Source: Lachnospiraceae bacterium (lineage in GTDB: Bacteria; Bacillota; Clostridia; Lachnospirales; Lachnospiraceae). From it: 64,000 nt of DNA. Below, piece after piece: positions 607 to 35,747 of the stretch. The stretch lies in the NCBI GenBank assembly GCA_017455435.1, contig JAFTAU010000038.1:2284-66283 (forward strand), given 5' to 3'. Position 1 is the first letter of the stretch. Each line of letters starts with the position of its first letter. The position numbers and the translations under genes were made by a program. The notes below the pieces were generated by a model that saw only the letters and a program-made list of their open reading frames with translations, was not told where the DNA came from and searched no databases.

Positions 607-667
607 TGAAAGAATTTGACGTCAAAAAAATCCGCGTCGCGCCGCTTTTGAAATAGACTCACTCTAA

Positions 668-687
668 AACTTTCTAAAAAGAAAGTT
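668..687. promoter_or_regulatory. Palindrome AACTTTC-N6-GAAAGTT; candidate operator upstream of the gene at 780
   Basis: Perfect 7-bp arms read directly, located ~30 bp upstream of a -35 box. The ACTTTCT core recurs at the divergent promoters near 4.7 kb. Confidence 0.3.
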
Positions 688-714
688 ATATTTTGCCCAA
701 CAGAAAATTTAGTG

Positions 715-742
715 TTGACAAATAGTACGGTTAGGATAAAAT
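715..742 (+). promoter_or_regulatory. Sigma-70-type promoter, TTGACA-16 bp-TAAAAT
   Basis: TTGACA at 715-720 and TAAAAT at 737-742, ~40 bp upstream of the AGGAGG RBS and ATG at 780. Confidence 0.45.
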
Positions 743-779
743 AATTCTTGGTTGTAAAAACATATCAGGAGGTTTTGAA

Positions 780-1751
780 ATGAAAGACTTTATCATTGAT
801 CCCGCAACAGGATTTTCCTTTAACCCTTCGGATTTCGTTCCTTTTAAGGATCGCGAGGTCTGCGAGCGTGTCCGCAAGATCAGCGGCACCGATCTCGAAA
901 AGCGCGAGACCTGGTGGCATCCGGAATTCAACGTAAAGGTTATGATGAATCCTCATCCCGTACTTATCGCCACGCTTTTCTCGCGCCTCAAGGCCGCGTC
1001 TGAGGCCGGCAGAAAATTCACCATGATCCTTGGCAACCCGGAGCCCGATACCTATATTCCGCTGGCTCAGCTTATCAACTATTTCAAAGTTGACTGTTCA
1101 AAGGTCCACATCTTCGCGGAGGATGAATGGGCTGACGACCAGGGCAATATCGCTCCCCTCACCTACGAGGCCGGCTTCGTTCACTCCATGATCAAGTATC
1201 TCGTATATCAGATCGACCCGAAGCTCCGTATGCCCATGGAAAACGTTCACTTCCCTACCAACGAAAACATCAATGATTATTCAAAAATCATCAATGACAT
1301 TTCCGAAGGCGGCGCGGACATTATCTCCACGTCACCCGGCTGGACAGGTCATGTAGCTTTCGTGGATCCCATTCCGGAATTTATCGGCAGCGGAGACATT
1401 GAGGAATGGCTTAACAAGCCCGCTCAGATAGTCAAACTTCATCCCATGACCATCCTTCAGAACTCGCTCAACGGCACATTCGGACAGTCCGGCGACATCG
1501 CCAACGTTCCTCCGAAAGCCGCCACTATCGGCCCCATCGACGTAATGCGCGCCAAAGAGCGTATTGAGGTTCACGCGCTCAATACCTGCGGTACTTTCTC
1601 GTCATGGCAAAGAATGACGTCCCGTCTTGTTACTCACGGCCCCGTCACCCCGCTGGTTCCCAGCTCTATGCTCCAGACCAAGCCCACACAGGTTTATATC
1701 AGCGAAGAATTGGCAGCTCCTTTCGAGTGCTGGGAAAAGGTCGGATATTAA
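780..1751 (+). CDS. Glucosamine-6-phosphate deaminase / 6-phosphogluconolactonase superfamily protein (NagB-like, long form, 323 aa)
   Basis: AGGAGG RBS. Pattern F.MILG.P....Y..L......V..SKVH.F..DEW...G ... GAD....S.G..GHVAF.DP parallels the NagB signature (F..DEY ... G.G.DGH.AFNEP). Confidence 0.65.
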   Translation: MKDFIIDPATGFSFNPSDFVPFKDREVCERVRKISGTDLEKRETWWHPEFNVKVMMNPHPVLIATLFSRLKAASEAGRKFTMILGNPEPDTYIPLAQLINYFKVDCSKVHIFAEDEWADDQGNIAPLTYEAGFVHSMIKYLVYQIDPKLRMPMENVHFPTNENINDYSKIINDISEGGADIISTSPGWTGHVAFVDPIPEFIGSGDIEEWLNKPAQIVKLHPMTILQNSLNGTFGQSGDIANVPPKAATIGPIDVMRAKERIEVHALNTCGTFSSWQRMTSRLVTHGPVTPLVPSSMLQTKPTQVYISEELAAPFECWEKVGY

Positions 1752-1767
1752 TTATTTGCTCCTCAAA

Positions 1768-1795
1768 GGACCGGTTTACCGCCGGTTCTTTTTTT
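1768..1795 (+). terminator. Rho-independent terminator between convergent genes
   Basis: Stem GGACCGG/CCGGTTC with a 7-nt loop, followed by a run of 7 T (1789-1795). Confidence 0.6.
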
Positions 1796-1823
1796 GTGTT
1801 AGAAAAAGGGAGTTTTATAGAAT

Positions 1824-3278
1824 TCAGATGGAGAGCGCGGCGTCGTAGAGACGGGAAAAACGCGCGTATTTTTCGTCATAACTATAGCGGGGCTCGTAAC
1901 GCGCTTTGAAACGGACGCAGAGAGAGGCAGCCTCTTCAAGAGACTTATAGGAACCGCTGCCGACGGCGGCAATCATGGCCGCGCCGAGGCACGCAGCCTC
2001 GCTTTCCTCGGGAACCAGAACCGGAAGTCCTGTGATATCAGCCTGAATCTGACACCATAACTCGCTTTTGGCTCCGCCGCCGGTGGCGATGATGGAATCG
2101 ACCACTGTGCCGGCTTTTTTTATTGCTTCGCAGTTTTTGCGAAGAACAAAGGCCACGCCCTCCATAACGGCGCGCGCCATATCGAATGCGTCGTGCTCCT
2201 GCCTGAGTCCGTGGAATACTCCGCTGGCTCCGGCCTCAAATTCCGGCGCGTTGGTGCCCACGATATAAGGAAGAAAAATGATGTCGGTGCGGGGACGCTC
2301 ATTCAGAACCGCGTTCAGTTTGTCATAGCCGACGCCGGGCATGCAGGTACGTCTGAACCATTCCAGACTGACGCCGCCGCTTTCCGCCACGGGCAACATC
2401 ACACGCGTGTCGGGCAAAAAACCGTAGTGCATTGCGATCTTTCCGCCGTGTCCGGAGTCCCCGCGGGTCATTACCGCCAGAGCCATTACAGTACCGGTGG
2501 AGAGTGTGACGCGTCCGGGAGAAATATTGCCCGTACCTATCATACCGGCGAAATGGTCCAGAGTGCCGGTATTTATCGCGGCGCCCCGGTTTATTCCTGT
2601 CAGCGCGGCGGCTTCCTCGGTCAGGCTTCCGGCCACAGTACACGGCTCGACGAGCTGCGGAAGCTGCGCCGTACTGATTCCTATGGCGTTCAGCATTTTC
2701 TGCCAGTAGCTTTTTTTATAAATGTCAAAATACAGACTGAATGTCGCGATCGACATATCGGCGCAGAGCCTTCCGGTGAGCCTGTATGTGACGTAGTCCT
2801 TTAATAATACAAAATACGCCGTCCGGGGGAAAATATCGGGACGGTTTTTCTTTAACCACAGGATCTTGGTCGCGGGCCAGATGGGAAGCATGGAAAGCTG
2901 ACCGGTAACGCCTCTGACGGTTTCCGGAGAAAAAAGCTCGGAAAGCTGTTCGCACTCGCTGACCGATCTCTCGTCCATCCAGGAGATGGCGTTCATAAGC
3001 GGGCGCATGTCAGCGCCCAGGCATACCAGCGTTTCCGCCTGTCCGGTCAGGGCGATTTGCTTTATGTTGGCGCCGCTCCCCGCTTCACTGACAATATCAC
3101 GCAGCAACCCGGCGAGGCGCTCAAAGACCGCTTCGGCGTCAAATTCTACCGTATCGCCGCCGCGGATATAATCAACGGGCGTCGATTTAAAAGCAACGCG
3201 CCGCATACCTGAGTTGTACGCGGCTGCTTTGATGTTTGTGGAACCAAGATCTATTCCTATGTAAGTCGGTGCGCTCAT
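1824..3278 (-). CDS. FGGY-family carbohydrate kinase (xylulokinase/glycerol-kinase-like)
   Basis: N-terminal YIGIDLGSTNIKA and C-terminal ATGGGAKS..W.QI.AD. The 484-aa length is typical of FGGY kinases. Its start overlaps the DeoR stop (ATGA). Confidence 0.85.
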   Translation of the reverse strand: MSAPTYIGIDLGSTNIKAAAYNSGMRRVAFKSTPVDYIRGGDTVEFDAEAVFERLAGLLRDIVSEAGSGANIKQIALTGQAETLVCLGADMRPLMNAISWMDERSVSECEQLSELFSPETVRGVTGQLSMLPIWPATKILWLKKNRPDIFPRTAYFVLLKDYVTYRLTGRLCADMSIATFSLYFDIYKKSYWQKMLNAIGISTAQLPQLVEPCTVAGSLTEEAAALTGINRGAAINTGTLDHFAGMIGTGNISPGRVTLSTGTVMALAVMTRGDSGHGGKIAMHYGFLPDTRVMLPVAESGGVSLEWFRRTCMPGVGYDKLNAVLNERPRTDIIFLPYIVGTNAPEFEAGASGVFHGLRQEHDAFDMARAVMEGVAFVLRKNCEAIKKAGTVVDSIIATGGGAKSELWCQIQADITGLPVLVPEESEAACLGAAMIAAVGSGSYKSLEEAASLCVRFKARYEPRYSYDEKYARFSRLYDAALSI

Positions 3279-4045
3279 GCCAAAGTCACTTTCATTCCGG
3301 TCTGTCTCAGGGCGTCCGTTTCCGCGCGGTCGGCGCGCTCATCGGTAATGAGGCTGAGCTTGCCGTCGTTTACTTCGCAGACCTTTGAAAAGCCTGCCGT
3401 TCCGACCTTTGAATGGTCGGCGGCAATGATAACCTGTTTTGAAGCCGCTATCATCATGCGGTCAATAATGGCTTCCTCGGCGTGGCAGGTGGTAATGCCT
3501 CCATTCGTGCTGATGCCGTCTATGGACAGGATTGACCAATCGGCTTTGTAGTGGGAGAGCTGCTCCTGCGCATCGCTTCCGTAGGTGAAATTGAAGGTGG
3601 AATTGAGTTCTCCGCCGAGCAGCAGCACGCGGAAGCCGGGAGTATTGTTAAGGATCTTCGCAACGTCAAAAGCGTTCGTGACCACATTCAGAAATTTCTT
3701 TTTCTGAAGAGCTCTGGCTGCCTCTACGCAGGTGGAACCCGAATTGATAAAGATGGTATCGCCGTCTTTTATTATTTCGGACAGAACTTCGGCAATGCGC
3801 CTCTTTTCGGCCTGGTTTTTGATGTGCATATAATCGGACGGATTAGCGGCGACAGAAAGAACCGCGCCTCCGGAAACCCTCGCGAGCTGACCGGCCTCGT
3901 TCATGGAATCGAGGTCTTTTCTGATAGTGACGACAGTCACACCGAGAAGTTCGCTCAGCTCCGCGACGGAAACCTTTCCGTGCTCCTGAAGTATTGTGAG
4001 AATTTTCTCGCGCCTTGAATCAATCTTCGTTTTTCTGCTGCCCAT
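3275..4045 (-). CDS. DeoR-family transcriptional regulator
   Basis: N-terminal HTH (RREKILTILQEHGKVSVAELSELLGVTVVTIRKDL) plus a C-terminal DeoR sugar-phosphate-binding domain. Start chosen at Met 4045 (MGSRK) because the longer track ORF (to 4126) would overlap the upstream SIS gene. Confidence 0.85.
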   Translation of the reverse strand: MGSRKTKIDSRREKILTILQEHGKVSVAELSELLGVTVVTIRKDLDSMNEAGQLARVSGGAVLSVAANPSDYMHIKNQAEKRRIAEVLSEIIKDGDTIFINSGSTCVEAARALQKKKFLNVVTNAFDVAKILNNTPGFRVLLLGGELNSTFNFTYGSDAQEQLSHYKADWSILSIDGISTNGGITTCHAEEAIIDRMMIAASKQVIIAADHSKVGTAGFSKVCEVNDGKLSLITDERADRAETDALRQTGMKVTLA

Positions 4046-4061
4046 GGTATTTATTCCCTTA

Positions 4062-4658
4062 TTATTTATTGAGTCTCTTTCCGACTGCGCCTCCGGGATG
4101 AATAAGAGCGAAATCTTCTTTTTCATATCCCGTCTCCTCCATCAGCGCCGCCTGGAGTGCGTGAAAAACCGCACACGCCGCGGTAGTGCTTGTGGTCCCC
4201 TGAACATTATACTTGTCAGTTTCACGATTTACAAGAAACTTTATCAGAACGTCAGCTCTGCGCGCAAGCTCCGAATCAGTGTTTTCAGTAACAGTGATGA
4301 TTTTGACTCTTTTTTTTTCGCAGATGTCGGCGATGGGTATCAGCTCGCTTGTTCCGCCGCCGCGGGAGAGCAGCAACATCACGTCTCCTTTTTTTAAAAA
4401 TCCCATGCCGCCGTGGACGGCCTCCGCGGGGCTGATAAACTTTGCCGGTCTCTCCGCGCAGCACATCAGATGAGCAAAATGCATACAGGCAATGCCCGAA
4501 TGTCCGCAACCCGACGCGCCTATGCGCTCCGCGTTCTTCAACAGTTCCACCGCCGCCGAAAAACTGTCCCGGTCTATTGCGCCCTTTAGCGCGGAGAGGC
4601 ATTCCGCCTCAGTATCGAATGCCGCCAGGGCCATATTATAAGCATTATCGGATATCAT
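4062..4658 (-). CDS. SIS-domain phosphosugar isomerase (single SIS domain, 6-phospho-3-hexuloisomerase/KpsF-like size)
   Basis: Motif GASGCGHSG ... VMLLLSRGGGTSE ... KIITVTEN is the typical SIS nucleotide-like fold. GGAGGA RBS upstream of the ATG at 4658. Confidence 0.75.
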   Translation of the reverse strand: MISDNAYNMALAAFDTEAECLSALKGAIDRDSFSAAVELLKNAERIGASGCGHSGIACMHFAHLMCCAERPAKFISPAEAVHGGMGFLKKGDVMLLLSRGGGTSELIPIADICEKKRVKIITVTENTDSELARRADVLIKFLVNRETDKYNVQGTTSTTAACAVFHALQAALMEETGYEKEDFALIHPGGAVGKRLNK

Positions 4659-4687
4659 ATTTTTTCCTCCACTTGTAGTATAAATTT

Positions 4688-4790
4688 TTCCAAAAAGAAA
4701 GTCAAGTAATTATTTAGCTTTTTGAAAATGAATGTTTCAGATTGTTTTTAAGAAAAAAACATTGACTTTCTTTCTAAAAAAAACTATCAT
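4688..4790. promoter_or_regulatory. Divergent promoter region with two inverted copies of TTGACTTTCTTT
   Basis: Plus strand: TTGACT (4763-4768)-16 bp-TATCAT (4785-4790). Minus strand: TTGACT-17 bp-TATACT upstream of the SIS gene. The same 12-mer TTGACTTTCTTT occurs once on each strand (4694-4705 reverse, 4763-4774 forward). Confidence 0.45.
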
Positions 4791-4817
4791 AAATGAAAAA
4801 TAACACGGAGTATAAAA

Positions 4818-5516
4818 ATGAATATAAAACCGCCTTTTTTTGAGATAGGACCAAAATCCTATTTGTACGGAGATGATATACTGGAATTGGCTCTTGCGGC
4901 AGACAAAGCCAGCAAAAAATACGGCGTAGACATTATCTTTACGACCCCCGTTGTAGACATCAGGCGCGTGGCGCAGGAAACAGAGCGCCTTCATGTTTTC
5001 GCGCCCCACATGGACCCCATTTACCCCGGACGTGGGCTCGCGGATATTCTGCCCGAGAGTCTCGTGGCTGCCGGAGCGGAGGGCGTAATGCTCAACCACA
5101 CCGAAAAACCTCTTTCATACGAGGTTCTCTCAGAGACTGTCAAACGCGCAAAAGAGGTGGGGCTGACCACTATCGTTTGCGCGGATTCCGCCCGCGAAGC
5201 CGCGAGTATTGCCCGGCTGAAACCCGATATTATAGTGGCGGAGCCGTCGGAACTTATCGGCACCGGCGTCAGCGTAGGGGAAGAATATGTAGCCGCAGCC
5301 ATGGACGCGGTACATAACGTGGATTCGGATATTTTAGTCCTGACAGCCGCGGGTATAGCGGGCGGGCAGGATGTTTTTGACGTAATAGCCGCCGGAGCCG
5401 ACGCAACAGGCTCCTCGTCCGGCGTGGCAAAGGCGGAGGACAGAGCCGCCATGGTAGATGAAATGATTTCCGCTGTCCGCGAAGCATGGGATATGCGGTA
5501 TCCTGAAGGAGGATAA
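4818..5516 (+). CDS. Triosephosphate-isomerase-family protein (short, archaeal-type TIM-like)
   Basis: Motifs MLNHTEKP (compare NHSE) and AEPSELIGTG (compare EPPELIGTG) in a 232-aa protein. Confidence 0.7.
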   Translation: MNIKPPFFEIGPKSYLYGDDILELALAADKASKKYGVDIIFTTPVVDIRRVAQETERLHVFAPHMDPIYPGRGLADILPESLVAAGAEGVMLNHTEKPLSYEVLSETVKRAKEVGLTTIVCADSAREAASIARLKPDIIVAEPSELIGTGVSVGEEYVAAAMDAVHNVDSDILVLTAAGIAGGQDVFDVIAAGADATGSSSGVAKAEDRAAMVDEMISAVREAWDMRYPEGG

Positions 5517-5523
5517 TAAAAAA

Positions 5524-6144
5524 ATGGAATTCAAGGTTTTTCAAAAAGAACTCGAGCTGCAGAGCAGGGGCTGGATCCCCACTTTCCACGACGTCTCAAA
5601 AGAGGTTATGGAGATAGTCGCTGCGTCCGGTGTCAAAAACGGCACAGTCACTATCGCGTCGCACCACACCACCTGCTCGGTCATGATACAGGAGTGCAGC
5701 CACGATCTGGATTCTTTCGATCTGGAATACCTGCAGCACGACCTGCTGGATATCATGAGGGATCTTATTCCGGATTACCGCGAGGAGGGCGACTATCGTC
5801 ATCCCGGCCCCGTTCACGCGCAGTTCGGCAGATATGTGGACGAGCCCGGCAACTATACCAGCATGAACACGGACGGCCACCTTCGCTCGGTATTCTTCGG
5901 ACGCAGTGAGACCATGACCATAAAGGACGGAGTGCTGGACGGCGGCGAATTCGCCCACATCTATTTCGTTGACTGGGATCAGGTCAGGGCCCGTCACCGT
6001 CAGCTCAATATTACCGTTATGGGTACCACGGACGACGTGGGAGACCGCAAGTGGAACGACGGAGAAACCATCAATACGCTCCGCAAATTCACCGAAGAAG
6101 AAAAGGCATACGACAGACGCTACACTCTTCAGCAGGAGAGATAA
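5524..6144 (+). CDS. YjbQ/UPF0047-family protein (secondary thiamine-phosphate synthase fold) with a C-terminal extension
   Basis: The stretch NGTVTIASHHTTCSVMIQE...D...DL is the YjbQ signature region. Strong GAAGGAGG RBS. Confidence 0.7.
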   Translation: MEFKVFQKELELQSRGWIPTFHDVSKEVMEIVAASGVKNGTVTIASHHTTCSVMIQECSHDLDSFDLEYLQHDLLDIMRDLIPDYREEGDYRHPGPVHAQFGRYVDEPGNYTSMNTDGHLRSVFFGRSETMTIKDGVLDGGEFAHIYFVDWDQVRARHRQLNITVMGTTDDVGDRKWNDGETINTLRKFTEEEKAYDRRYTLQQER

Positions 6145-6183
6145 GGACTGCGTCACGAAAGGAAATTTATCGGAGAGAATAAT

Positions 6184-6861
6184 ATGAGACTGATTATAGA
6201 CAATGCCAATGTTTCCGACATCAAGAGGCTTTATGACGTTTATCCCATCGACGGAGTGACCACAAATCCTTCTATACTTGCAAAAACAGGCAGAAAGCCT
6301 TATGATGTACTGAAAGCTATCAGAGAGCTCGTCGGACCTGACGGAGAGCTTCACGCCCAGGCGATATCCCGCAAGGCTGAGGACATCATCCGCGAGGCGG
6401 AGTTCATCCGCGAAAAGCTCGGAAGCGCTACTTATATTAAGATTCCCGCCATTCCGGAGGGTATTAAAGCTATTAAAGAGCTCTCAAAGGTCGGATGCCG
6501 CATTACCGCAACCGCGGTTTATACCCCTCTGCAGGCGCTGGTGGCCGCAAAGGCCGGAGCCGATTATGTGGCTCCGTACGTAAACCGCATTGACAATCTC
6601 GGCGGCAGCGGCGTAGAGACGGTCGGTGAGATTAAAGAGATCTTTGAAAACAACGGAATAAAAACAATGATTCTCGCCGCGAGCTTCAAAAATGCGAATC
6701 AGGTAAAAGAGATCTGTCGAATGGGCATCGACGCCGTCACGCTCCAGCCGGAGCTGATAGACTCGCTTCTCAAAAACGATTCCGTAGAAGCCGCCGTAGA
6801 CAGATTCATTTCGGATTTTGAGGTTCTCTGTGGTTCCGGAGCTACCATGATCCAGAACTGA
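6184..6861 (+). CDS. Fructose-6-phosphate aldolase / short transaldolase (TalC/FSA family)
   Basis: Motifs DGVTTNPSIL, ATYIKIPA and ITATAVY.. in a 225-aa protein, which is the typical FSA/TalC class. Confidence 0.85.
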   Translation: MRLIIDNANVSDIKRLYDVYPIDGVTTNPSILAKTGRKPYDVLKAIRELVGPDGELHAQAISRKAEDIIREAEFIREKLGSATYIKIPAIPEGIKAIKELSKVGCRITATAVYTPLQALVAAKAGADYVAPYVNRIDNLGGSGVETVGEIKEIFENNGIKTMILAASFKNANQVKEICRMGIDAVTLQPELIDSLLKNDSVEAAVDRFISDFEVLCGSGATMIQN

Positions 6862-6958
6862 AGGCCCGCTTCACAGGGAGACAGAGGACGTGGAGACAGG
6901 GGACGAAACAGTGTCTCCTGTCTTCTTTTTAACAAACAAATAACAGGAGTATAAATAT

Positions 6959-8101
6959 ATGAAAGCTATTATCAACGCGACACTCGTCATGAAGGATCAT
7001 CTGATCTGCGACGCGTGTATTTTATTTGAAAACGGTGTTATCGTCGATTTCGGCGAGATGTGCAGCCTCTCAATTCCGGAGGGAGCGGAGATAATCGACG
7101 CGCAGGGGCTCTTTGTCGGTCCGGGTCTTGTGGACATTCATAATCACGCCGGCGGCGGAAAGTGGTTCTTTGAGGATCCGGAGTATGCCGCTCGCGCCAA
7201 TCTGCTTCACGGCACGACCACAGTTCTGGCCTGTCTTTATTTTGATATGAATAGGGACGAGCTGGTAGAGAGCGCCGCGCGCATAAAGGCCGTGATGAAT
7301 ACTCCGGCCGGAGCCAACATCGCCGGCTTTTATATGGAAGCCCCGTACATGAATCCCAAATTCGGTGCGAACCGCGAGCAGAATCCCTGGCGCGGCCCCA
7401 TCCGTGCCGAGGACTACATGCCCGTCATCGAGGCTGTCGGCGACGACGTGAGAGTCTGGGTGCTCGCCCCCGAAAGAGAGAATATCGAACAGTTTGTAAA
7501 GGATGCCAAAAAGCGCAATCCGAACGTCCGCTTTTCCGTGGGACACAGCGAGGCGAGCCCGCAGCAGATTGAGGCGCTCATGCCTTACGGTCTCTGTATC
7601 GGAACCCACCACACCAACGCCACCGGAGACCGCATTTTTTATCCCGAGGTCCGCGGCGTTTGTGTGGATGAAACGGTCAATTACAACCGCGACATCTACG
7701 CGGAGCTTATCTGCGACAGCCGCGGCATCCATGTGGATCCCTATATGCTGCGTCTGGTACGCAAGATTAAGGGCGACGACAGGATTATCCTCATTACCGA
7801 TTCCTGCGTATTTGACGGACCCATCCCGCCCGGATATGACGGCGTGACGGATATCAATTTTGACCATGAGGGCGAAATCGCCGGCTCAAAGCTGTCTCTC
7901 GAGATAGCCTGCCGCAATATGATGAAGCACACCGGAGCGTCTATCGTCGATGTGTTTAAGTTTGCGTCGACGAACCCCAGCAATGTTCTGGGCTTAAAAG
8001 ACAGGGGTCTGATAGAAAAAGGCCGCCGCGCGGATCTTATCATCACGGATCATTGGATGAACGTCAAAAAAGTTTTGTTCAAAGGGGAAGAGGTCTCTTG
8101 A
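6959..8101 (+). CDS. Amidohydrolase, N-acetylglucosamine-6-phosphate deacetylase (NagA)-like
   Basis: GLVDIHNHAGGG metal motif, 380 aa, and C-terminal GLIEKGRRADLII as in NagA-type amidohydrolases. Confidence 0.7.
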   Translation: MKAIINATLVMKDHLICDACILFENGVIVDFGEMCSLSIPEGAEIIDAQGLFVGPGLVDIHNHAGGGKWFFEDPEYAARANLLHGTTTVLACLYFDMNRDELVESAARIKAVMNTPAGANIAGFYMEAPYMNPKFGANREQNPWRGPIRAEDYMPVIEAVGDDVRVWVLAPERENIEQFVKDAKKRNPNVRFSVGHSEASPQQIEALMPYGLCIGTHHTNATGDRIFYPEVRGVCVDETVNYNRDIYAELICDSRGIHVDPYMLRLVRKIKGDDRIILITDSCVFDGPIPPGYDGVTDINFDHEGEIAGSKLSLEIACRNMMKHTGASIVDVFKFASTNPSNVLGLKDRGLIEKGRRADLIITDHWMNVKKVLFKGEEVS

Positions 8102-8709
8102 AAAGATATTGTGCAAAAAAGGTGACGGGCACTCCTGATTGGGAGGATTGTCCGAGTGCTTTTCTCGAGGAAAAATATCGTTTGACGCCGCCCGGGACCG
8201 GCGCCGAAGCTCAGCTCGCCTGGACGGACGACAAGCTGCTGGTTCATCTGAGGGCTTACGTCAGTGAAATCCGCGCGGAGGAAAAGGGTCCTACGGGTTC
8301 GCCCTGCGAGGACAGCTGTCTGGAGTTCTTTTTCTGCCCGGTTCCCGGCGACGGGCGTTATTTTAATATAGAGTTTAATTTTAACGGTTGTGTGTATCTG
8401 GGTTTCGCGAGCGGTCTTTCCAATCTGGTAAGGCTCCTCCCGGAGGGCGGCATCGAGCAGATTTTCCATCCTGAGATCAAAAGGACTCCGGATGGGTGGG
8501 AAATCTTTTACGAGATTCCGTTTGATTTTATCCGCAGGTTTTTGCCGGAGACGAGACCCGCCGCAGGCAATGTAATCAAGGCTAATTTTTACGCCTGCTC
8601 CGATTTGTCCAATCCCCCCTACTACATTTCGTGGAGCCCGGTCCGGTCGGAGAGATTTACCTTCCACAACACCGACAACTTCGGGGAAGTGGTTTTCGAG
8701 ACAGATTAA
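8098..8709 (+). CDS. Carbohydrate-binding family 9-like (CBM9/DOMON-like) protein with no signal peptide
   Basis: Pattern W.DDKLLVHL.A...........DSCLEFF..P......YFNIE.N ... F....FG.VVF. The start is uncertain: TTG at 8098 overlaps the NagA-like stop, and the track ORF starts at 8053 inside the upstream gene. Confidence 0.5.
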   Translation: MKRYCAKKVTGTPDWEDCPSAFLEEKYRLTPPGTGAEAQLAWTDDKLLVHLRAYVSEIRAEEKGPTGSPCEDSCLEFFFCPVPGDGRYFNIEFNFNGCVYLGFASGLSNLVRLLPEGGIEQIFHPEIKRTPDGWEIFYEIPFDFIRRFLPETRPAAGNVIKANFYACSDLSNPPYYISWSPVRSERFTFHNTDNFGEVVFETD

Positions 8710-8714
8710 TTTTA

Positions 8715-9117
8715 GCCCCGCCCGTTTTTGACGCAAACTTGAAAATTTTTTATCGCACGAACATATACGCTTCGAAGCTTGCGCCTGTGCTGTCAGCGAA
8801 GCCCTACGGGCTCCGGCACGCTTGCCTCCGCCCGATGCCTTCGGACAGCGTTACGCCGCAATCTTCTCGCTAATGTCTTAATGCGAAAAAAATTTTAAGT
8901 TGTGCTATGCGGGCGGGGCAGGTTTCCTCGAGGCCGGCCCTCGTGCTACCTCAAGGCGGGATCCGAAGGCCGCCGGCGCTTAACGAATTCGAGCGTAAGC
9001 GATGAATGAGTTTAGCGTCCGCTGCGTGACTGAGATAGCGAGAGCGTCCCGCCGGAGGTTCACGAGGGTCAGGCCGGAACAGACACATCCCTCGTTTGCG
9101 TCAAAAGAGGGCGGGGC
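8715..9117. repeat. ~400-bp GC-rich non-coding element bounded by 24-nt imperfect inverted termini; MITE-like or structured RNA
   Basis: Left end is GCCCCGCCCGTTTTTGACGCAAAC (8715-8738). The reverse complement of the right end (9094-9117) is GCCCCGCCCTCTTTTGACGCAAAC, matching at 22/24. Internal long stems lie at 8789-8849 and at 8934-8961 paired with 9047-9077. Confidence 0.45.
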
Positions 9118-9184
9118 GTGAATAGTGCCAAAAACAGCCAAAAACAGGCGGGGCGTAAATAACAGAGACAGACTTAAAACAATC

Positions 9185-9193
9185 TGGTATAAT
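9185..9193 (+). promoter_or_regulatory. Extended -10 element (TGGTATAAT) of the likely rha operon promoter
   Basis: TGnTATAAT read directly, ~37 bp upstream of the rhaD ATG. GGAAGAGGAG RBS follows. Confidence 0.4.
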
Positions 9194-9229: not shown

Positions 9230-10042
9230 ATGAAAGACATCCTTACAGCACCTTACATGGTGGAAATGATCCGTACCGTGACAAACATGTACAATCACGG
9301 CTGGGACGAAAGAAACGGCGGAAATGTTTCCATGCTTCTGGACGAAGCAGACGTCGCGGAATATCTCGACACCGAAACCGCGATACGCGAAATCAAAACA
9401 GGATTTTCCGCTCCGCAGCTCGACGGAAAATACTTCCTCGTCACCGGCACGGGCAAATATTTCAAAAATGTGCAGTATGAGCCAGAGATAAATCTCGGAA
9501 TTGTACGCCTTACCGACGGCGGCGAGACCGCCCGCCTTCTTTGGGGCTTTTCGGACGGCGGAAACTTCACCTCGGAATTTCCCGCGCACATGATGAGTCA
9601 CGCGGCGCGTCTTTCCGTTGACCCGGAAAACCGCATAATCATGCACTGCCATCCCTCAAACCTTCTGGCTATGACATACGTCCACACACTCGACGAAAGA
9701 GAATTCACCCGTACGCTCTGGCGCATGAGCACAGAGTGCATCGTGGTATTCCCGGAAGGCGTAAACGTGCTTCCCTGGATGGTCTGCGGCACGAATGAGA
9801 TAGGAGAGGCTACCGCTGAAAAAATGCTCACCGCCAGGCTTGTGGTCTGGGCGCAGCACGGCATTTACGGCTGCGGACGTACTCTGGACGAGGCCTTCGG
9901 TCTGATAGAGACCGCGGAAAAAGGCGCCGAGATATATATGAAGATAGCGCACCTGCCGATTCTGAATACAATCACCGACGAAGACCTGCATAAGCTCGAG
10001 GAAAGATTCGGCCAGAAAGGACGCGAGGGTTATCTCGATTAA
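9230..10042 (+). CDS. rhaD: Rhamnulose-1-phosphate aldolase
   Basis: N-terminus ...MYNHGWDERNGGNVS... and class II aldolase His motifs (HCHP). 270 aa. Followed by rhaB and rhaA. Confidence 0.85.
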   Translation: MKDILTAPYMVEMIRTVTNMYNHGWDERNGGNVSMLLDEADVAEYLDTETAIREIKTGFSAPQLDGKYFLVTGTGKYFKNVQYEPEINLGIVRLTDGGETARLLWGFSDGGNFTSEFPAHMMSHAARLSVDPENRIIMHCHPSNLLAMTYVHTLDEREFTRTLWRMSTECIVVFPEGVNVLPWMVCGTNEIGEATAEKMLTARLVVWAQHGIYGCGRTLDEAFGLIETAEKGAEIYMKIAHLPILNTITDEDLHKLEERFGQKGREGYLD

Positions 10043-24562: not shown

Positions 24563-26464
24563 ATGAATAAAAAATTGTTATCAATATTGAGTATTCTGCT
24601 TACGCTGACATTGGTTTTTGCCGAATTCAAAGCACCCGTGAAGGTTTTCGGCGAGGAGGAAAAAAACGAAATCGAAAGTGCAGTTTCTGCGATTGCGGAC
24701 TCCATCGGCGTGAGCAGCACTTCCGCTCAGCTGATAAACGATAACGTGATGTACGTTATCACAGACGCCGCCGGAACACCCGAAAAAGCCATTTTTTCCG
24801 ATGCAAACGGAATGACGGAGCAGGAACTGGCGAGCTTCAAGCAGCCTGTGGACGTTACTGTTACATACACTCTTAACGGAAAAGAAGTGAGCGCAGATGA
24901 AATAGCCGGCGCGTCCGGAAAGGTCGGCATCAGGTTTGATTACAGAAACAATGAGATCAAGACTGTGGAGATAGACGGAAAAGAGGAGGAGATGTTTATC
25001 CCTTACGTCGTGGTTTCCGGTGTGATCCTGAGCAATGAAAACTTTTCGGACATTGAAATAGTTCACGGCAGGCTTGCCGGAGACGGAAGCAGATTCGTGG
25101 CCGGCGGAATCGCCGTGCCCGGGCTGAAGCAGAATATCGACCCGGACGGAAAAATAAAGGATCTGGAAAAAATACCGGATTATATAGAAATCACTGCGAA
25201 TACGACAAATTTCGACCTTCCGATGACTATCTCAGCTGTTTTTGCGCTGAATCTTGACGAACTGGAGCTGGGAAGTTTTGACGGAGTGACAGAGCTGACG
25301 GACGGAATCGGCCGCCTGAAAGATGCGATGATACAGCTTGTGGACGGCGCCGGACAGCTTTCTGACGGCAGCGAAAAGCTTTCGGACGGTGCGGCGCAGC
25401 TTGCAGGCGGAATAAAAGAGCTGAGCGGCGGCCTGGGCAAGCTTTCAGACAACAGCGGCGCGCTCAGAGACGGAGCCGCGCAGGTATTTAATTCACTGCT
25501 TTCCACGGTGAAGGGAGAACTGGAAAAAGGCGGCCTGCAGGTCGGAAACCTGACCATAGGCAATTATTCAAAGACCTTGAATAAGATAATTGATTCCCTG
25601 GATTCTACCAATGTTTATAATCAGGCGCTGGCGCAGGTGACCGTGGCGGTAGAAGCGAACCGCCCGCAGATAAAGGCAGCAGTCACGGCAGCGGTAAAAG
25701 ATCAGGTTACGACGGCGGTAAAGGCCGCGATAGAGCAGGGCGTGAGAGCGCAGGCCACCGATACGGTAAGGGCTGCTGCGGAACCCGGCGTCAGGGAAGC
25801 GGTCATTACCGGAGCAGGTTTCAATTCTGTGGCGGAGTATGAAGCAGCTGTGACGGGAGGATTTGTGAGCGCCGAGGTGGCCGCGCAGATAGAGGCGGCT
25901 GTGGCTTCAAATCTTGATACGGTAGTCGAACAGCAGCTGCAGACGCTTATCACGCAGCAGACGGATGCACAGCTCGACGGCCAGGTAGAAGCGCAGATGA
26001 ACAGCGACGAGATAAAAGCTGTGATTGATGCAAATACTCAGACTCAGGTCGAAATGCTTATCTCGCAGAATATGGCGTCCGAGGAGGTACAGGGAAAGCT
26101 TTCCACAGCTGCGGCCGGAGCAAAAGCGGTTATAGCCGCAAAAGCACAGCTTGACGCTTACAACTCGTTCTATCTGGGGCTTAAAACGTATACAAACGGT
26201 GTCGACGCGGCCGCATCCGGAAGCAAAAAGCTCCTGGACGGCGCCGGCAGCTTAAAGAAAGGCGCATCGGACCTGGCGGGCGGTATGTCGGAGCTTGCCG
26301 ACGGCATCAAAAAACTGGACGATGAGGGCATAAGCAAACTCACCGAAAAGTTCGACGAAAACACGGTTTCTGCGATAAAGCGCTTTGCAAAGGTTCTTGA
26401 AATTGCGGGCGATGCCACGGACGTGAAATATATCATCAGAACTGCGTCTGTTGAGGGCAAATAA
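24563..26464 (+). CDS. YhgE/Pip-domain secreted or anchored protein with tandem L.DG...L heptad-like repeats
   Basis: Signal peptide present. Repeats LTDGIGRLKDAMIQLVDGAGQLSDGSEKLSDGAAQLAGGIKELSGGLGKLSDNSGALRDGA recur near the C-terminus (LLDGAGSLKKGASDLAGGMSELADGIKKL). Confidence 0.75.
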   Translation: MNKKLLSILSILLTLTLVFAEFKAPVKVFGEEEKNEIESAVSAIADSIGVSSTSAQLINDNVMYVITDAAGTPEKAIFSDANGMTEQELASFKQPVDVTVTYTLNGKEVSADEIAGASGKVGIRFDYRNNEIKTVEIDGKEEEMFIPYVVVSGVILSNENFSDIEIVHGRLAGDGSRFVAGGIAVPGLKQNIDPDGKIKDLEKIPDYIEITANTTNFDLPMTISAVFALNLDELELGSFDGVTELTDGIGRLKDAMIQLVDGAGQLSDGSEKLSDGAAQLAGGIKELSGGLGKLSDNSGALRDGAAQVFNSLLSTVKGELEKGGLQVGNLTIGNYSKTLNKIIDSLDSTNVYNQALAQVTVAVEANRPQIKAAVTAAVKDQVTTAVKAAIEQGVRAQATDTVRAAAEPGVREAVITGAGFNSVAEYEAAVTGGFVSAEVAAQIEAAVASNLDTVVEQQLQTLITQQTDAQLDGQVEAQMNSDEIKAVIDANTQTQVEMLISQNMASEEVQGKLSTAAAGAKAVIAAKAQLDAYNSFYLGLKTYTNGVDAAASGSKKLLDGAGSLKKGASDLAGGMSELADGIKKLDDEGISKLTEKFDENTVSAIKRFAKVLEIAGDATDVKYIIRTASVEGK

Positions 26465-26802
26465 CGAACGCCCGGAGCGGCGCATATATTATTAAGATTT
26501 TTTACCAAATTATTTTACAAATAAAAGACAAATCCCTCAAAAATATAGTATAATAAATTGAACTGAGAACTTTCGTAATATAAAATTTCCTTCAGACAAA
26601 CGCCCTGGGGTGTTCGAAAAGCTGTATTATTTTTGAACCTACACTTTGACATAAGGGATTTCAGTATTGCTTTGGATATGTCAGGCCTCGATGCAGTGGA
26701 AGACAGAGTCCGAAGCCGCGATTACCCACCTGGCAGCAGCTAGGCGTCAGAAAAGCAGTCCGGCACTTTGGGGTTTAATTTTTTTCAGGGAGGAAAAATC
26801 CA

Positions 26803-31885: not shown

Positions 31886-32590
31886 TTATCTTGACCTGCC
31901 GGCGAGTTTTCGCGTGTGGTACATCGCCGTGTAGGCTTCTTCGGTGAGGTAATTCAGGTATTCTTCATCCTCTATGGAAAACTCGCGGTTTATCAGTTTT
32001 TTGATGAGGAAACGGCGCTGCTCGCCCGGGGCGGCGCTGTTTTCATCCGCGAAAATCATTTTGTCAAGGTCGGCAGAGGAATAAGTGCCGAGAAACCAGC
32101 CTATAACCTTGAGAGTAAAGGCGTTTTCCGCCGCGAGGCCTTTTTTCGCGCTGTATGACTTGAAAAAAATCCGAAGTCCGAAAACGATAAAGAAAAATCC
32201 GAGAATCAGTTCGATAACAGTCAGAAAAACATGAGAATCATTTGAACCGGCAAAGCCGAGCACTCGTGAAAGACCGATGAAAAAGGCGACGCCCCCGCAC
32301 AGCACAAAGAAAAAGGAAGAGTCGTTGATCTCGCCGAGTTTTTTGAGGGCGGCGGAAAAAGAAGGAGAAGAGGGTTTTTCGTTTTCGCAGCCGCAGCGTC
32401 GTTTTTCTATCAGTTTTTTTGCTTTTTCTTCGTCGACCGCGTCTACCGTGACGACAAACAGCTCCCCTTCGTCGTCGCTGCAGATCAGCGCATCGACGCC
32501 GGAACAGGTGAGGTATTCACTGATTCTTTCCGCGTAGAGCCGCGGGCCTTTAGTTACGACCGCCCGCCCCAGTTCATCTGAATATGACAT
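31886..32590 (-). CDS. Hypothetical membrane protein: soluble N-domain, three TM segments, acidic C-domain
   Basis: ORF with coding-like composition that fills the gap between convergent and divergent neighbours. No family recognised. Confidence 0.5.
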   Translation of the reverse strand: MSYSDELGRAVVTKGPRLYAERISEYLTCSGVDALICSDDEGELFVVTVDAVDEEKAKKLIEKRRCGCENEKPSSPSFSAALKKLGEINDSSFFFVLCGGVAFFIGLSRVLGFAGSNDSHVFLTVIELILGFFFIVFGLRIFFKSYSAKKGLAAENAFTLKVIGWFLGTYSSADLDKMIFADENSAAPGEQRRFLIKKLINREFSIEDEEYLNYLTEEAYTAMYHTRKLAGRSR

Positions 32591-33132: not shown

Positions 33133-34021
33133 AGTAAGAGGTTTGGTTAAAAGCTTTGGGGAAACAAAGGCTCTCGACGGGGCGGATATGAACGTCCGCA
33201 ATTCCAGCGTTTATGGGCTCGTGGGTCCCAACGGCTGCGGAAAGACCACCATGATAAAACATCTTTTGGGCGTGCTCAGGCAGGATGCCGGCACGGTATC
33301 CTACGACGGGAGCGACATCTGGGAGAACGCCTCGATAAAGCAGCAGATCGCGTCGATTCCGGACAACTGGTTCTTTTTCCATTCGGCCACTGTATCGGAT
33401 ATGAAAAAGTATTATCAGGGCTTCTACGGGAATTTTTCAGAGGAACGTTTCAAAAAGCTTTCCGCGCTTTTTGATATAAATCCCTCCCGCAGAATCAGCT
33501 CGCTTTCAAAGGGAATGAAAAAGCAGGTCGCGTTTTGGATTACGCTTTCCACCATGCCGGGCTATCTGATTCTCGACGAGCCGGTGGACGGCCTTGACCC
33601 CGTTATGCGCCGTCAGATTTGGCGCCTGCTGATGGACGACGTTTATCAAAGGGGCACGACGGTGCTCGTCTCGTCGCACAATCTCCGCGAGCTCGAGGAC
33701 GTCTGCGATTTTGTCGGCATTATGAATAATGGCAAAATCGAAATAGAGCGCTCGCTGACGAAGCTCCAGGAAAACATGGTAAAAATCCAGATTGTTTTTC
33801 CGGAAGAGGTAAAAGAACTGCCGCAGGGCATTCCCGCGCTGCACAGCTCCCGCATGGGCAGGGTCTATACCCTGATTATGAAGATGAACGAGCAGGAAGC
33901 CAAGGACGCTTTGTCACAGTACGAGCCGCTTATGTTCGAGGCGCTTCCCCTGACGCTGGAGGAAATATTCATTTATGAAATGGGAGGAAAAGACCATGAC
34001 ATCAAGGACGCCGTACTTTAA
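33125..34021 (+). CDS. ABC transporter ATP-binding protein
   Basis: Walker A GPNGCGKTT, signature LSKGMKKQ and Walker B LILDEP. Confidence 0.9.
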   Translation: MIEVRGLVKSFGETKALDGADMNVRNSSVYGLVGPNGCGKTTMIKHLLGVLRQDAGTVSYDGSDIWENASIKQQIASIPDNWFFFHSATVSDMKKYYQGFYGNFSEERFKKLSALFDINPSRRISSLSKGMKKQVAFWITLSTMPGYLILDEPVDGLDPVMRRQIWRLLMDDVYQRGTTVLVSSHNLRELEDVCDFVGIMNNGKIEIERSLTKLQENMVKIQIVFPEEVKELPQGIPALHSSRMGRVYTLIMKMNEQEAKDALSQYEPLMFEALPLTLEEIFIYEMGGKDHDIKDAVL

Positions 34022-35747
34022 TAAAACTCTCTTTAAAAAGAATATACTAGGCTTCTGGCCTCTCTGGGGCGTAGCCGGGCTGTTGGGCGTCGTTGTGTCG
34101 CTCGGAATCCTGAATATTAACCTCTATGACGAGACTCGCTTCTTCAACAGCGTTTTTGAGCTTTCGCCCATAATCAACGTTGTTCTGGCTATGATTTACG
34201 CCATGCTGTGCGCGCTGCTGGTCTGGAAATACCTGTTCAGCGAAAAGAGCGACGTGTTCTTTCACTCGCTGCCCGTAAAGCGTGAAGGCCTCTTTTTGAC
34301 CAACTATCTGTCAGGCTTTGTCATCATGCTCATTCCTTACGTCTGCGTCGGAGCCACTGTGGTGATATCAAGTCTGGTTCACCATGCCTTTGACGCCGGC
34401 GTTGTTCTCCGCACTGTTCTTATTGTGCTGGGTGAAAACCTTTTCTTCTTCTCCCTCGCGTCGTTCGTGGTTTTTCTGGTGGGACATTTGGCGTCGTTTA
34501 TCGCGGTATATCTGGCCGCGAATTTTCTGGCGGTGCTTTTTGAACTGGTCATTACCGGTCTGGCGCGCGGATTTTGGGTGGGATACGATACGGTTTATAA
34601 CGCGTATGCCAGATTCCTCTCGCCCTGCGTTCACATGATTGCCGAGTTGGAGGAAAGCGGAAACTGGGTTGTTGCGGCCTACGCGGCGGTGGGCGTCGCG
34701 TTGTCGGTGGCCGCGATGCTTTTGTACCGCGGGCGCAACAGCGAGTCCGCCGGAGAGATTGTGGCTATCAGGGTGCTGCGCCCCATTTTCAAATATGCCT
34801 TCGCGATTGTCATAGGCATGCTGGGCGGAAATATTCTGTATAGCCTGCTGTACCTCTTTGACTCCGACAGCGCGTACAGGTTTTTGCCTATGCTGATTTG
34901 CGAACTTCTGATGGGCGCGATAGGATACTTCGCGGCGCAAATGCTTCTGGAAAAAACGGTCCGCGTATTCAAAAAGAAGAATATGACGGGGTTCATTCTC
35001 GTTTCCGCTGTCCTGATACTGATCTGCGGCTCATTCAAGATGGATTTCTTCGGCGTTGAAAACAGAACCGCGAAAGCGGAGGATATAAAATGCATCGAAA
35101 TGATGGCGGTGGGCGCCAGATGTGAGGCCGGCCAGGACGATTCGGACAGGCTGCGGAAGATTCTGGATTTTCATGAGGTGATTCTCGAAAACAAAGAAGA
35201 TATCCGTTTCGCGGACGACACCTCTCTCTGGACTTTGAGCGATTATCGTGGCAACACGGTCAGATTCGTTTATACTCTGAAGAACGGCGAGGTATTTGAG
35301 CGCCAGTATATTTTCAGGCCAGGGAACGAGGCGATATATAATGCTTATGAAAACATCATGAAAGATACCGAGGTGAAGAGAGGATTCTTCTCCACGGAAG
35401 GCGTTAAGATAACAAATATCGAACTGTTTCAGATGGCCGGCGAGGGCGCGGAGAGCACGTATGAACAGACCAGTGTTCATCACGTCGATTATAACAGGAT
35501 TCTGAACGCCCTTTATAAAGAGGCTGACAAGATTGAGTTTTTCAGCGGCGACGATTATGCGCTCATAATGAACATCTCTTCCGAAAAAGCCAAAAACTCG
35601 GATTATTATGACTATTATTATCTTTCGATAGTAATAACTCCCGACATGAAGAATGTTGTGGAGGAACTGATTCGCACCGGTCTTCTTGCAAACGAAAACG
35701 GCACTTTAAAACTGATTGACGAAGAATACGGACACTCGCAGAAATGA
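33996..35747 (+). CDS. ABC-2-type membrane permease component with a large C-terminal extracytoplasmic domain
   Basis: Start chosen at the ATG at 33996, which has a GGGAGGAA RBS. Multiple TM segments are followed by a ~220-aa soluble tail. Translationally coupled to the ATPase gene. Confidence 0.6.
   Translation: MTSRTPYFNKTLFKKNILGFWPLWGVAGLLGVVVSLGILNINLYDETRFFNSVFELSPIINVVLAMIYAMLCALLVWKYLFSEKSDVFFHSLPVKREGLFLTNYLSGFVIMLIPYVCVGATVVISSLVHHAFDAGVVLRTVLIVLGENLFFFSLASFVVFLVGHLASFIAVYLAANFLAVLFELVITGLARGFWVGYDTVYNAYARFLSPCVHMIAELEESGNWVVAAYAAVGVALSVAAMLLYRGRNSESAGEIVAIRVLRPIFKYAFAIVIGMLGGNILYSLLYLFDSDSAYRFLPMLICELLMGAIGYFAAQMLLEKTVRVFKKKNMTGFILVSAVLILICGSFKMDFFGVENRTAKAEDIKCIEMMAVGARCEAGQDDSDRLRKILDFHEVILENKEDIRFADDTSLWTLSDYRGNTVRFVYTLKNGEVFERQYIFRPGNEAIYNAYENIMKDTEVKRGFFSTEGVKITNIELFQMAGEGAESTYEQTSVHHVDYNRILNALYKEADKIEFFSGDDYALIMNISSEKAKNSDYYDYYYLSIVITPDMKNVVEELIRTGLLANENGTLKLIDEEYGHSQK

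Follow-up and report, generated by a model that had tools for sequence, protein, structure and literature searches.

A hairpin-rich 355-bp segment occurs in both orientations between a sugar gene cluster and rhaDBA in a Lachnospiraceae species

What is the noncoding element of about 400 bp that separates a sugar gene cluster from the rhaD-rhaB-rhaA (rhaDBA) genes in a Lachnospiraceae bacterium? The element lies in 64,000 nucleotides (nt) of GenBank assembly GCA_017455435.1 (contig JAFTAU010000038.1, positions 2,284 to 66,283, forward strand), which we analyzed as a whole and call the window. A first-pass annotation, made from the letters alone, had described a GC-rich element closed by 24-nt inverted termini, with two long internal stems, and had proposed either a miniature inverted-repeat transposable element (MITE) or a large structured RNA. 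Comparison with other assemblies of the same uncultured species shows instead a real and precise inversion, with exact boundaries. The reading that we consider probable is that the element is an inverton, in which a 355-bp segment (8739-9093), lying between the sugar operon and rhaDBA, would be flipped by recombinase-driven strand exchange between the 24-bp repeats.

The segment between the inverted termini is found in both orientations

All the sequence features that the first-pass annotation listed proved to be present at the positions it gave. The left inverted repeat (IRL), GCCCCGCCCGTTTTTGACGCAAAC, is complementary to the right inverted repeat (IRR), GTTTGCGTCAAAAGAGGGCGGGGC, over 24 nt at 22 positions (92%), and the two are separated by 355 nt. 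A degenerate pattern of this terminus occurs at only two places in the 64 kb, the termini themselves, and in none of 100 dinucleotide-preserving shuffles, none of which produced such a pair. The features on which the argument rests are as follows.

8715 to 8738, unstranded: IRL, which stays linked to the CBM9_2 flank and the GT mismatch in both orientations
8739 to 9093, unstranded: invertible 355-bp segment (the cargo), present as an exact-boundary reverse complement (353/355) in contigs L115-L119, with which partial contigs L120-L124, L134, L138-L141, and L143-L145 concur
9094 to 9117, unstranded: IRR, with the variant GTTTGCG-GAAAAGAGGGCGGGGC in every contig of haplotype H2 (see below) that covers it
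8726 to 8738 (partner 9094 to 9106), unstranded: 13-bp core TTTTGACGCAAAC, identical between the repeats, with an exact match only at these two places
8098 to 8709, plus strand: CBM9_2-domain gene, the last gene of the plus-strand sugar cluster, with its stop codon 5 nt before IRL
9230 to 10042, plus strand: rhaD (class II aldolase), the first gene in rhaD-rhaB-rhaA

The element is thus placed between the CBM9_2-domain gene, which follows genes for triosephosphate isomerase, YjbQ, transaldolase, and an amidohydrolase on the plus strand, and rhaD-rhaB-rhaA.

We compared the window with contigs whose RhaD and CBM9_2 proteins are identical or almost identical to those encoded here and typed the orientation in the window and 26 of these contigs (W, as in the window; F, flipped). 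In contigs encoding RhaD variant P0002, including the NCBI contig JAFYCV010000005.1 from a metagenome-assembled genome (MAG) labeled "Lachnospiraceae bacterium," the gene order CBM9_2, gap, rhaD is that of the window and the flanks are collinear at 95.3-95.6% identity, while 8739-9093 is present as its reverse complement, with 353/355 identity. The flipped orientation was found in 18 contigs, with both junctions covered in L115-L119, the right one in L120-L124 and L134, and the left one in L138-L141 and L143-L145. Orientation W was found in the window and eight contigs (both junctions in L004, the left one in L005 and L006, the right one in L001-L003 and L137). The typed contigs come from SPAdes, MEGAHIT, and Logan assemblies and from one NCBI MAG. 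In both orientations, the GT/TC mismatch between the repeats remains with the flanks, which places the crossover inside the 13-bp core.

An assembly or binning artifact that mimics inversion is a negligible possibility. Short-read assemblies do break within the element, with Logan contigs stopping at 8783, 8836, and 9032/9034 and a SPAdes contig starting at 8945. However, both junctions of each orientation are spanned, by three assemblers and in many samples, and haplotype single-nucleotide polymorphisms and repeat variants travel with each orientation. Moreover, the repeats have no more than 13 consecutive nt in common, which is below any read length and far under every k used, so that a flip introduced by an assembler is impossible.

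A non-autonomous transposon inserted between the sugar cluster and rhaD would have the 24-bp terminal inverted repeats, the length of about 400 bp, the lack of coding sequence, and the capacity to form hairpins that are seen here. Nevertheless, the element is single copy in the window, is flanked by no target-site duplication (TTTTA precedes IRL and GTGAA follows IRR), and is crossed by a 90-kb MEGAHIT contig assembled at k = 141, so that it is no high-identity repeat within that genome. Neither the related loci nor the mobile-element collections searched contain it. The first-pass annotation had suggested looking for the empty site, and no haplotype of the species is without the element. Finally, the element is found inverted without having left its site, an outcome that transposition does not produce. 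With a single copy, no target-site duplication, no homologs, and an in-place flip, the MITE proposal did not hold up, and we regard it as very improbable. Judged from the assembled sequences, the inverted ends are sites of in-place inversion and not transposon ends.

The homology searches were negative over a wide range. When 185,579 species genomes (596 Gb) were scanned with GCCCCGCCCNNTTTTGACGC, 25 single hits were obtained in unrelated phyla, compared with about 17 expected by chance on our own estimate, and none extends. No similarity to the element was detected by blastn or nhmmer in 80 metagenome rhaD loci (at most 82% amino acid identity), in which rhaD usually follows another gene within about 130 bp. 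BLAST against plasmids and phages gave no match, and three viral-contig scans revealed nothing related. One chance hit of the terminus pattern, in a Selenomonadales MAG (L018:2830-3000), falls within a long G+C-rich palindrome, GGGGCGGGGCGTTTG...CAAACGCCCCGCCCTTTTTTGACGC, that is otherwise unrelated. Identity among RhaD homologs drops from at least 98% to 83% with none between, so the species is isolated and the element is confined to it. Sample labels suggest that the source habitat is perhaps the ruminant gut.

By its structure, then, the element is an inverton as far as sequence can tell: an inverted-repeat pair of 24 nt matching at 22/24 positions lies 355 nt apart, and both orientations occur naturally with breakpoints in the repeats and flanks unchanged. 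The 24-nt repeat with two mismatches also falls within the PhaseFinder repeat criteria as quoted in PMC10994844.

Inversion has probably occurred more than once

The contigs fall into at least four haplotypes, whose relatedness was assessed over 1,270 nt from the rhaD start codon.

H1 (for example, the window): orientation W, both repeats intact
H2 (for example, L116): orientation F, IRR reads GTTTGCG-GAAAAG
H3 (L145 for the left side and L134 for the right, sample SRR28201451): orientation F, IRL reads GCCCCGCCCTCTTTAC-CGCAAAC, IRR intact
H4 (for example, L137): orientation W, IRR intact, IRL not recovered

The tree of the rhaD region is nearly a star, with 16, 5, 18, and 13 singletons. Two informative sites join H2 with H4, one joins H3 with H4, and none supports the split that would be congruent with orientation. 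H2, which is flipped, is nearest to H4, which is not (13 differences, vs. 23-37). Orientation is therefore probably incongruent with haplotype relatedness, and the segment has probably inverted more than once.

The repeats themselves bear on how this happened. H2 and H3, the flipped haplotypes, have each lost 1 nt at the same GA of TTTTGACGC, H2 in IRR and H3 in IRL, while all the repeats recovered from W haplotypes are intact (the IRL of H4 was not recovered). The scarred GA is the middle of a 15-nt quasi-palindrome, GTTTTTGACGCAAAC, self-complementary at 10/15 positions, within which the 13-bp core sits. Since the deletions are on opposite repeats and orientation is incongruent with relatedness, we take them to reflect two or more separate events at one defined cleavage position, a pattern suggestive of an enzyme.

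The cargo appears strongly constrained but lacks ordinary signals

We then asked how the segment has fared relative to its surroundings. Divergence between H1 and H2 at four-fold degenerate sites is 16.5% in the amidohydrolase gene, 9.6% in the CBM9_2 gene, 6.2% in rhaD, and 9.1% in rhaB, and the pooled value for the amidohydrolase, CBM9_2, and rhaD genes is 11.5%. The cargo differs between the same haplotypes at only 2 of 355 positions (0.56%), which has a probability of about 1e-16 given the four-fold rate and about 1e-5 given the overall flank divergence of 4.5%. This is a roughly 20-fold deficit of substitutions relative to four-fold sites. H3 offers an independent comparison: a single difference from H1 was found in the 158 nt of cargo sampled, vs. 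14% divergence at rhaD four-fold sites, 93% identity in CBM9_2, and 75% identity in the spacer between IRR and rhaD. By raw mismatch counts, the low divergence of the cargo is matched or nearly matched by 2 of the 47 windows of 355 bp in the flanks, and the argument for constraint therefore rests on the four-fold sites and on the H3 comparison. Because the tract of low divergence is exactly the segment, and is inverted relative to its flanks, homologous exchange between strains would not account for it. Strong constraint thus seems to act on the cargo, whichever orientation a lineage is fixed in.

The first-pass annotation had found no credible open reading frame (ORF) in the gap, and we concur: the only ORFs in the element are 45-86 amino acids long, and none has a Pfam match at E ≤ 1. 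It was also right to call the element GC-rich as far as direction goes, although the enrichment is modest (57% G+C in the segment vs. 51% in the window). The best promoter candidates score 8/12 and were picked out by eye: TTGACG-17-TATCGC, whose first hexamer is borne by the repeat, and TTGAAA-17-CATATA at the end of arm 1 (see below). The cargo is not an ordinary invertible promoter. GC skew over the window does not point to an origin or terminus of replication here.

Two long hairpins fill the segment

The minimum-free-energy (MFE) fold of 8710-9125 consists of a closing stem formed by the termini and two hairpins of about 175-190 nt. Its energy on the plus strand is -191.1 kcal/mol, vs. -149.7 ± 6.0 in shuffles (z = -6.94), and that of the minus strand is -180.2 kcal/mol (z = -5.62).

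8733 to 8905, unstranded: arm 1, a long imperfect hairpin with an A/T-rich base and a G+C-rich tip
8909 to 9099, unstranded: arm 2, a long imperfect hairpin with core helices 8932-8962/9046-9075
8909 to 8919, plus strand: central GCGGGCGGGGC motif at the segment midpoint (centre = 8916), complementary to IRL 8715-8724 at 10/10 positions

Both internal pairings proposed by the first-pass annotation were recovered within the MFE fold, the first as 8788-8794/8844-8850 and 8797-8801/8839-8843, and the second as 8932-8935/9072-9075, 8936-8945/9061-9070, 8948-8952/9055-9059, and 8955-8962/9046-9053. The arms differ in the strand on which they are more stable. Arm 1 favors the minus strand (-73.4 vs. 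-60.2 kcal/mol, a gap of 13 kcal/mol), and arm 2 favors the plus strand (-95.4 vs. -72.0 kcal/mol, a gap of 23 kcal/mol), where it has eight G-U pairs vs. two on the minus strand and a GNRA-type loop (GUAA, 8995-8998) at its tip. No sequence relation, direct or inverted, was found between the two arms. In a C/G-skew scan, the order read from either end is repeat, C-rich arm, centre, G-rich arm, repeat, a skew pattern that is symmetric under inversion, which means that the gross architecture survives flipping.

Could the cargo be a self-contained gene for a large structured noncoding RNA (ncRNA), or for two RNAs, one per arm, with the termini as a closing stem and the inversion incidental? The strong fold (z = -6.9), the roughly 20-fold substitution deficit that a functional RNA would show, the opposite strand preferences of the arms, the GNRA-type loop closing arm 2, and conservation in lineages fixed either way, as for a self-contained unit, all speak for it. 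On the other hand, Rfam, in which the first-pass annotation had suggested ROOL, GOLLD, OLE, and raiA as families to check, gave no hit at the gathering score, and the best matches at E ≤ 10 were to eukaryotic families (18 and 11 bits). A covariance model of arm 2, run over 445 kb of related loci, recovered only its own copies (in the window and L145) and a chance-level match (E = 0.79). The substitutions across all haplotypes are only three, at 8760, 8799, and 8978; none forms a compensatory pair, and two break a predicted pair. Furthermore, no promoter or terminator delimits a transcript, both strands fold almost equally well overall, and the precise inversion at the termini would be left without an explanation. 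We consider such a gene quite unlikely. Hence, while the anatomy described by the first-pass annotation stands, with inverted termini enclosing two long hairpins, the class it assigned does not: the termini are functional sites of DNA inversion, a reading it had not raised, the MITE is refuted on these data, and a large RNA is possible but unlikely. Other structured elements were tried as well. A retron msr-msd was rejected because the neighbors are the CBM9_2 gene and rhaD and there is no reverse transcriptase in the window. An integron attC site, an IS110 bridge RNA, and Tn3-type ends were rejected since a partner gene or motif is missing.

Copies of the repeat lie next to the rhaDBA promoter

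Outside the segment, on the rhaD side, are the following features.

9165 to 9193, plus strand: sigma-70-type promoter-like site for rhaDBA, GAGACA-17-TGgTATAAT, outside the invertible segment, in which TGGTATAAT is kept in all haplotypes
9102 to 9161, plus strand: block with tandem copies of the repeat outer half, CAAAAnnGGGCGGGGCGTrAATA, at 9102-9124 and 9139-9161, with GCCAAAAACA twice at 9127-9146

The promoter-like site, of the extended -10 type, is the sole sigma-70-type site found around the element. As the first-pass annotation had noticed, GGCGGGGC recurs, at 8912, 9110, and 9147, and a tandem duplicate of GCCAAAAACA occupies 9127-9146; together with the complement at 8715, these are 4 of the 7 occurrences of GGCGGGGC within the 64-kb window. 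The outer half of the repeat, CAAAAnnGGGCGGGGC, is present in three copies here and nowhere else in the window at up to one mismatch, and none of 100 shuffles reaches the six matches observed for the outer-half motif. Two copies stand in tandem immediately upstream of the -35 element of rhaDBA, and H3 retains three tandem outer-half units despite a spacer that is only 75% identical. These copies could be accessory sites for a recombinase or operators for a regulator. Separately, IRL with its left flank (8702-8730) is an inverted, gapped copy of the third motif copy and the spacer of the rhaDBA promoter (9139-9186), which hints that the repeats arose via inverted duplication of the promoter-proximal region.

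The left flank of the element varies between haplotypes. In H2 (L115-L119; L116:1953-1986), the CBM9_2 stop codon is separated from IRL by the 34 nt GCCCGGCTCTTTTTGGTGCGGGTTATGTAAGAAC, in place of the TTTTA of the window. The H3 left flank differs too, with a perfect TATAAT immediately before IRL.

These observations bear on whether the inversions are programmed at all. The repeats might primarily be operators that a rhaDBA regulator binds, or might be left over from an inverted duplication of the promoter-proximal region, with rare short-homology or illegitimate events having flipped the segment between them once or twice and its cargo being conserved for an unrelated reason. Several findings fit: orientation is fixed within each haplotype over many samples, the window holds no recombinase gene, the outer halves recur in tandem just upstream of the -35 element like an array of activator sites, the alignment of IRL and its flank with the third copy and promoter spacer suggests an old inverted duplication, and both flipped haplotypes bear a junction scar such as an imprecise one-off event might leave. 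However, 13 bp of identity is very short for homologous recombination, scars at the same dinucleotide of opposite repeats indicate site-specific cleavage, orientation and relatedness are incongruent, and the conservation between the repeats takes in the core as well as the putative operator half. Unprogrammed inversion is thus unlikely in our view.

How a switch at this locus might work

If the element is a programmed inverton, a recombinase encoded elsewhere in the genome would pair the two repeats and cleave within the shared core TTTTGACGCAAAC, most likely at or beside GA. Accessory binding sites might be provided by the CAAAAnnGGGCGGGGC copies in tandem toward rha, together with the one at the segment centre. 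Orientation might then set which strand of the structured cargo is transcribed, conceivably by read-through of the upstream operon or by initiation at a weak hybrid promoter made of the repeat-borne TTGACG and the TATCGC at the end of arm 1. The cargo might in turn gate or modify transcription entering rhaDBA and so give rise to cell-to-cell or strain-to-strain heterogeneity in rhamnose catabolism.

A more specific version is that the cargo is an invertible riboregulator, a conserved structured RNA module whose two arms are each tuned to a different strand, in which inversion would choose the strand expressed and thereby gate transcription between the sugar operon and rhaDBA. We hold this to be speculative and unlikely. 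If true, such a riboregulator would be set apart from invertible promoters and from the A/T-rich leader switches of C. difficile by its orientation-neutral architecture, which would let it function in both states, and by selection about 20-fold stronger than on synonymous sites. As a variant, one idea is that the hairpins extrude as cruciforms that bring the repeats together, in which case the cargo would serve recombination itself.

Several observations weigh against a recombinase-driven switch acting on rhaDBA. First, a Pfam survey of the roughly 55 ORFs of the 64-kb window revealed no recombinase, integrase, or transposase, which means that a trans-acting enzyme would be needed. There is precedent for such an arrangement, since RecV serves several switches of Clostridioides difficile from elsewhere in the genome. 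Second, no sample yielded both orientations among the assembled contigs typed, and orientation is uniform per haplotype, with 17/17 H2-type contigs flipped and 7/7 H1 records (the window and six contigs) in orientation W, so that switching within a clone could be slow or extinct. Third, the phylogenetic argument comes down to three informative sites in a near-star tree, and recombination between strains, evident as mosaic divergence, could confound the comparison of orientation with relatedness. Fourth, scans of the cargo and across its junctions found, in either orientation, neither a sigma-70 promoter (≥9/12) nor an intrinsic terminator, the latter even in a relaxed scan, and the only good promoter is downstream of the element, which is consequently outside the leader of that promoter. 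Fifth, the element looks nearly identical from either side, with the central motif at its midpoint, which makes the consequence of flipping hard to name. Given the position of the promoter and the absent signals, any regulatory output is a guess.

Comparison with known invertible and structured elements

Invertons are mostly known as invertible promoters that precede surface, capsule, fimbrial, or restriction genes, with most examples from Bacteroidota and pathogens. The element resembles these (E. coli fimS, the Mpi-controlled promoters of Bacteroides, and the invertons cataloged by PhaseFinder and DeepInverton) in being intergenic, flanked by inverted repeats, and present in both orientations, with a size within the known range. 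It differs in that its cargo is dominated by structure, has no detectable promoter, and is far more conserved than the flanking genes. More than 75% of cataloged invertons are under 300 nt (PMC11602134), and the median in Clostridia-like Firmicutes is three per genome (PMC11892184).

The closest worked example, by analogy, would be the promoter-less flagellar switch of C. difficile, which is flipped by RecV and exerts its effect through Rho, once transcription has started (PMC7446863). The switch upstream of flgB is likewise a short noncoding segment with imperfect inverted repeats that flips in place and carries no promoter, and in neither case does the recombinase gene appear to be close by, none having been found near the element in the 64-kb window. 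Small changes in the length of its repeats lead to populations that are more than 99% ON or OFF (PMC12282940). These changes are comparable to the 1-nt deletions of H2 and H3, and by analogy, the scars may lock the flipped state. In contrast, the flgB switch is 154 bp long and A/T-rich (its leader has 23% G+C), whereas the segment here is 355 bp with 57% G+C and two hairpins. The flgB switch is inside the 5′ leader, downstream of the promoter, whereas the element is upstream of the sole recognizable rhaDBA promoter, and it belongs to a surface or motility locus, whereas the neighbor here is a catabolic operon. In the cwpV switch of the same species, reported by Emerson et al. in 2009, orientation is said to be read out via RNA structure, the switch reportedly lying between promoter and gene and forming a canonical terminator in one orientation. 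Here, by comparison, no hairpin with a U-tract is present in either orientation.

The two classes named by the first-pass annotation can be compared in the same way. With MITEs, the element shares terminal inverted repeats, a size of about 400 bp, noncoding content, and the ability to fold back, but it is single copy, has no target-site duplication, has no family members that we could find, and inverts in place. With ROOL, GOLLD, OLE, and raiA, it shares the size class, a multi-stem fold, an intergenic location, and strong conservation, but it matches no covariance model and it is the DNA itself that inverts.

Taken together, these comparisons suggest that the unusual cargo could prove to be a new variant of inverton. 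Without a promoter, it is yet the most conserved sequence of the locus, in strains fixed either way, beside a core sugar-catabolic operon. If it acts at the level of RNA or DNA structure, it would extend the short list of promoter-less switches (flgB and cwpV) and tie phase variation to the use of carbon sources in a gut commensal. The locus also offers a caution, because what shows up in one genome as "inverted termini plus hairpins" may turn out to be an inverton and not a MITE or RNA gene, a choice that strain-level assemblies settle quickly.

A truncated arrangement and other observations at the locus

A third arrangement of the element, beside W and F, was found in some contigs, and we call it arrangement B.

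8944 to 8945, unstranded: arrangement B breakpoint, with a tmcAL-like gene in place of everything to the left of 8945

L002 (1-198) and L003 (1-337) join window position 8945 to a tmcAL-like gene (PF05636) on the minus strand, whose start codon is 43 bp from the junction. L001, a contig of 125 kb, has 8945 as its first position, and L005, which comes from the same sample, breaks off at 8999. Arrangement B is 100% identical to H1 on the right side of the junction; IRL, arm 1, and the 5′ strand of arm 2 are missing from it. By its sequence, it resembles a switch that was truncated recently within the H1 lineage: because 8932-8944 pair with 9062-9075, the complete arm, and not arrangement B, is the older state. 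A protein search for the tmcAL locus that might explain the arrangement returned only fragments at no more than 70% identity.

The Logan contigs (k = 31) that stop inside the segment, at the three places mentioned above, come from 15 samples and do so in either orientation. No k-mer of the element of 16 nt or longer is repeated in the window, so the recurrent stops are not explained by repeats; our guess is that they stem from an Illumina bias at strong hairpins.

Variation extends to the left of the element. In H3 (SRR28201451; L145:2763-3001 compared with window 608-7966), about 7.3 kb of sugar-cluster sequence is absent, and with it the genes for a 323-amino acid protein, an FGGY kinase, a DeoR regulator, a SIS protein, triosephosphate isomerase, YjbQ, and transaldolase, together with the greater part of the amidohydrolase gene. 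All that is left between the iron-dependent alcohol dehydrogenase gene and CBM9_2 are relics of 6255-6347 and 7967-8101. Three independent assemblies (MEGAHIT at k = 141, SPAdes, and Logan at k = 31) end about 2.2 kb to the left of the window start (L007:1-141, L008:1, and the start of the contig of L005), next to an esterase gene, with offsets that roughly follow k. This suggests another strain-variable junction or a repeat about 2.2 kb to the left of the window.

Elsewhere in the window, four ORFs of 234-633 amino acids have no Pfam match at E ≤ 1e-5 (24563-26464, 33975-35747, 31886-32590 on the minus strand, and 60641-61741). A RhuM-family gene (49303-50292) adjoins divergent gamma-glutamyltranspeptidase paralogs at 50395-51954 (minus strand) and 52517-54412 (plus strand). 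Finally, a 6S (SsrS) RNA gene was detected at 26599-26778 on the plus strand, as a full-length match scoring 61.6 bits vs. a gathering score of 46.4.

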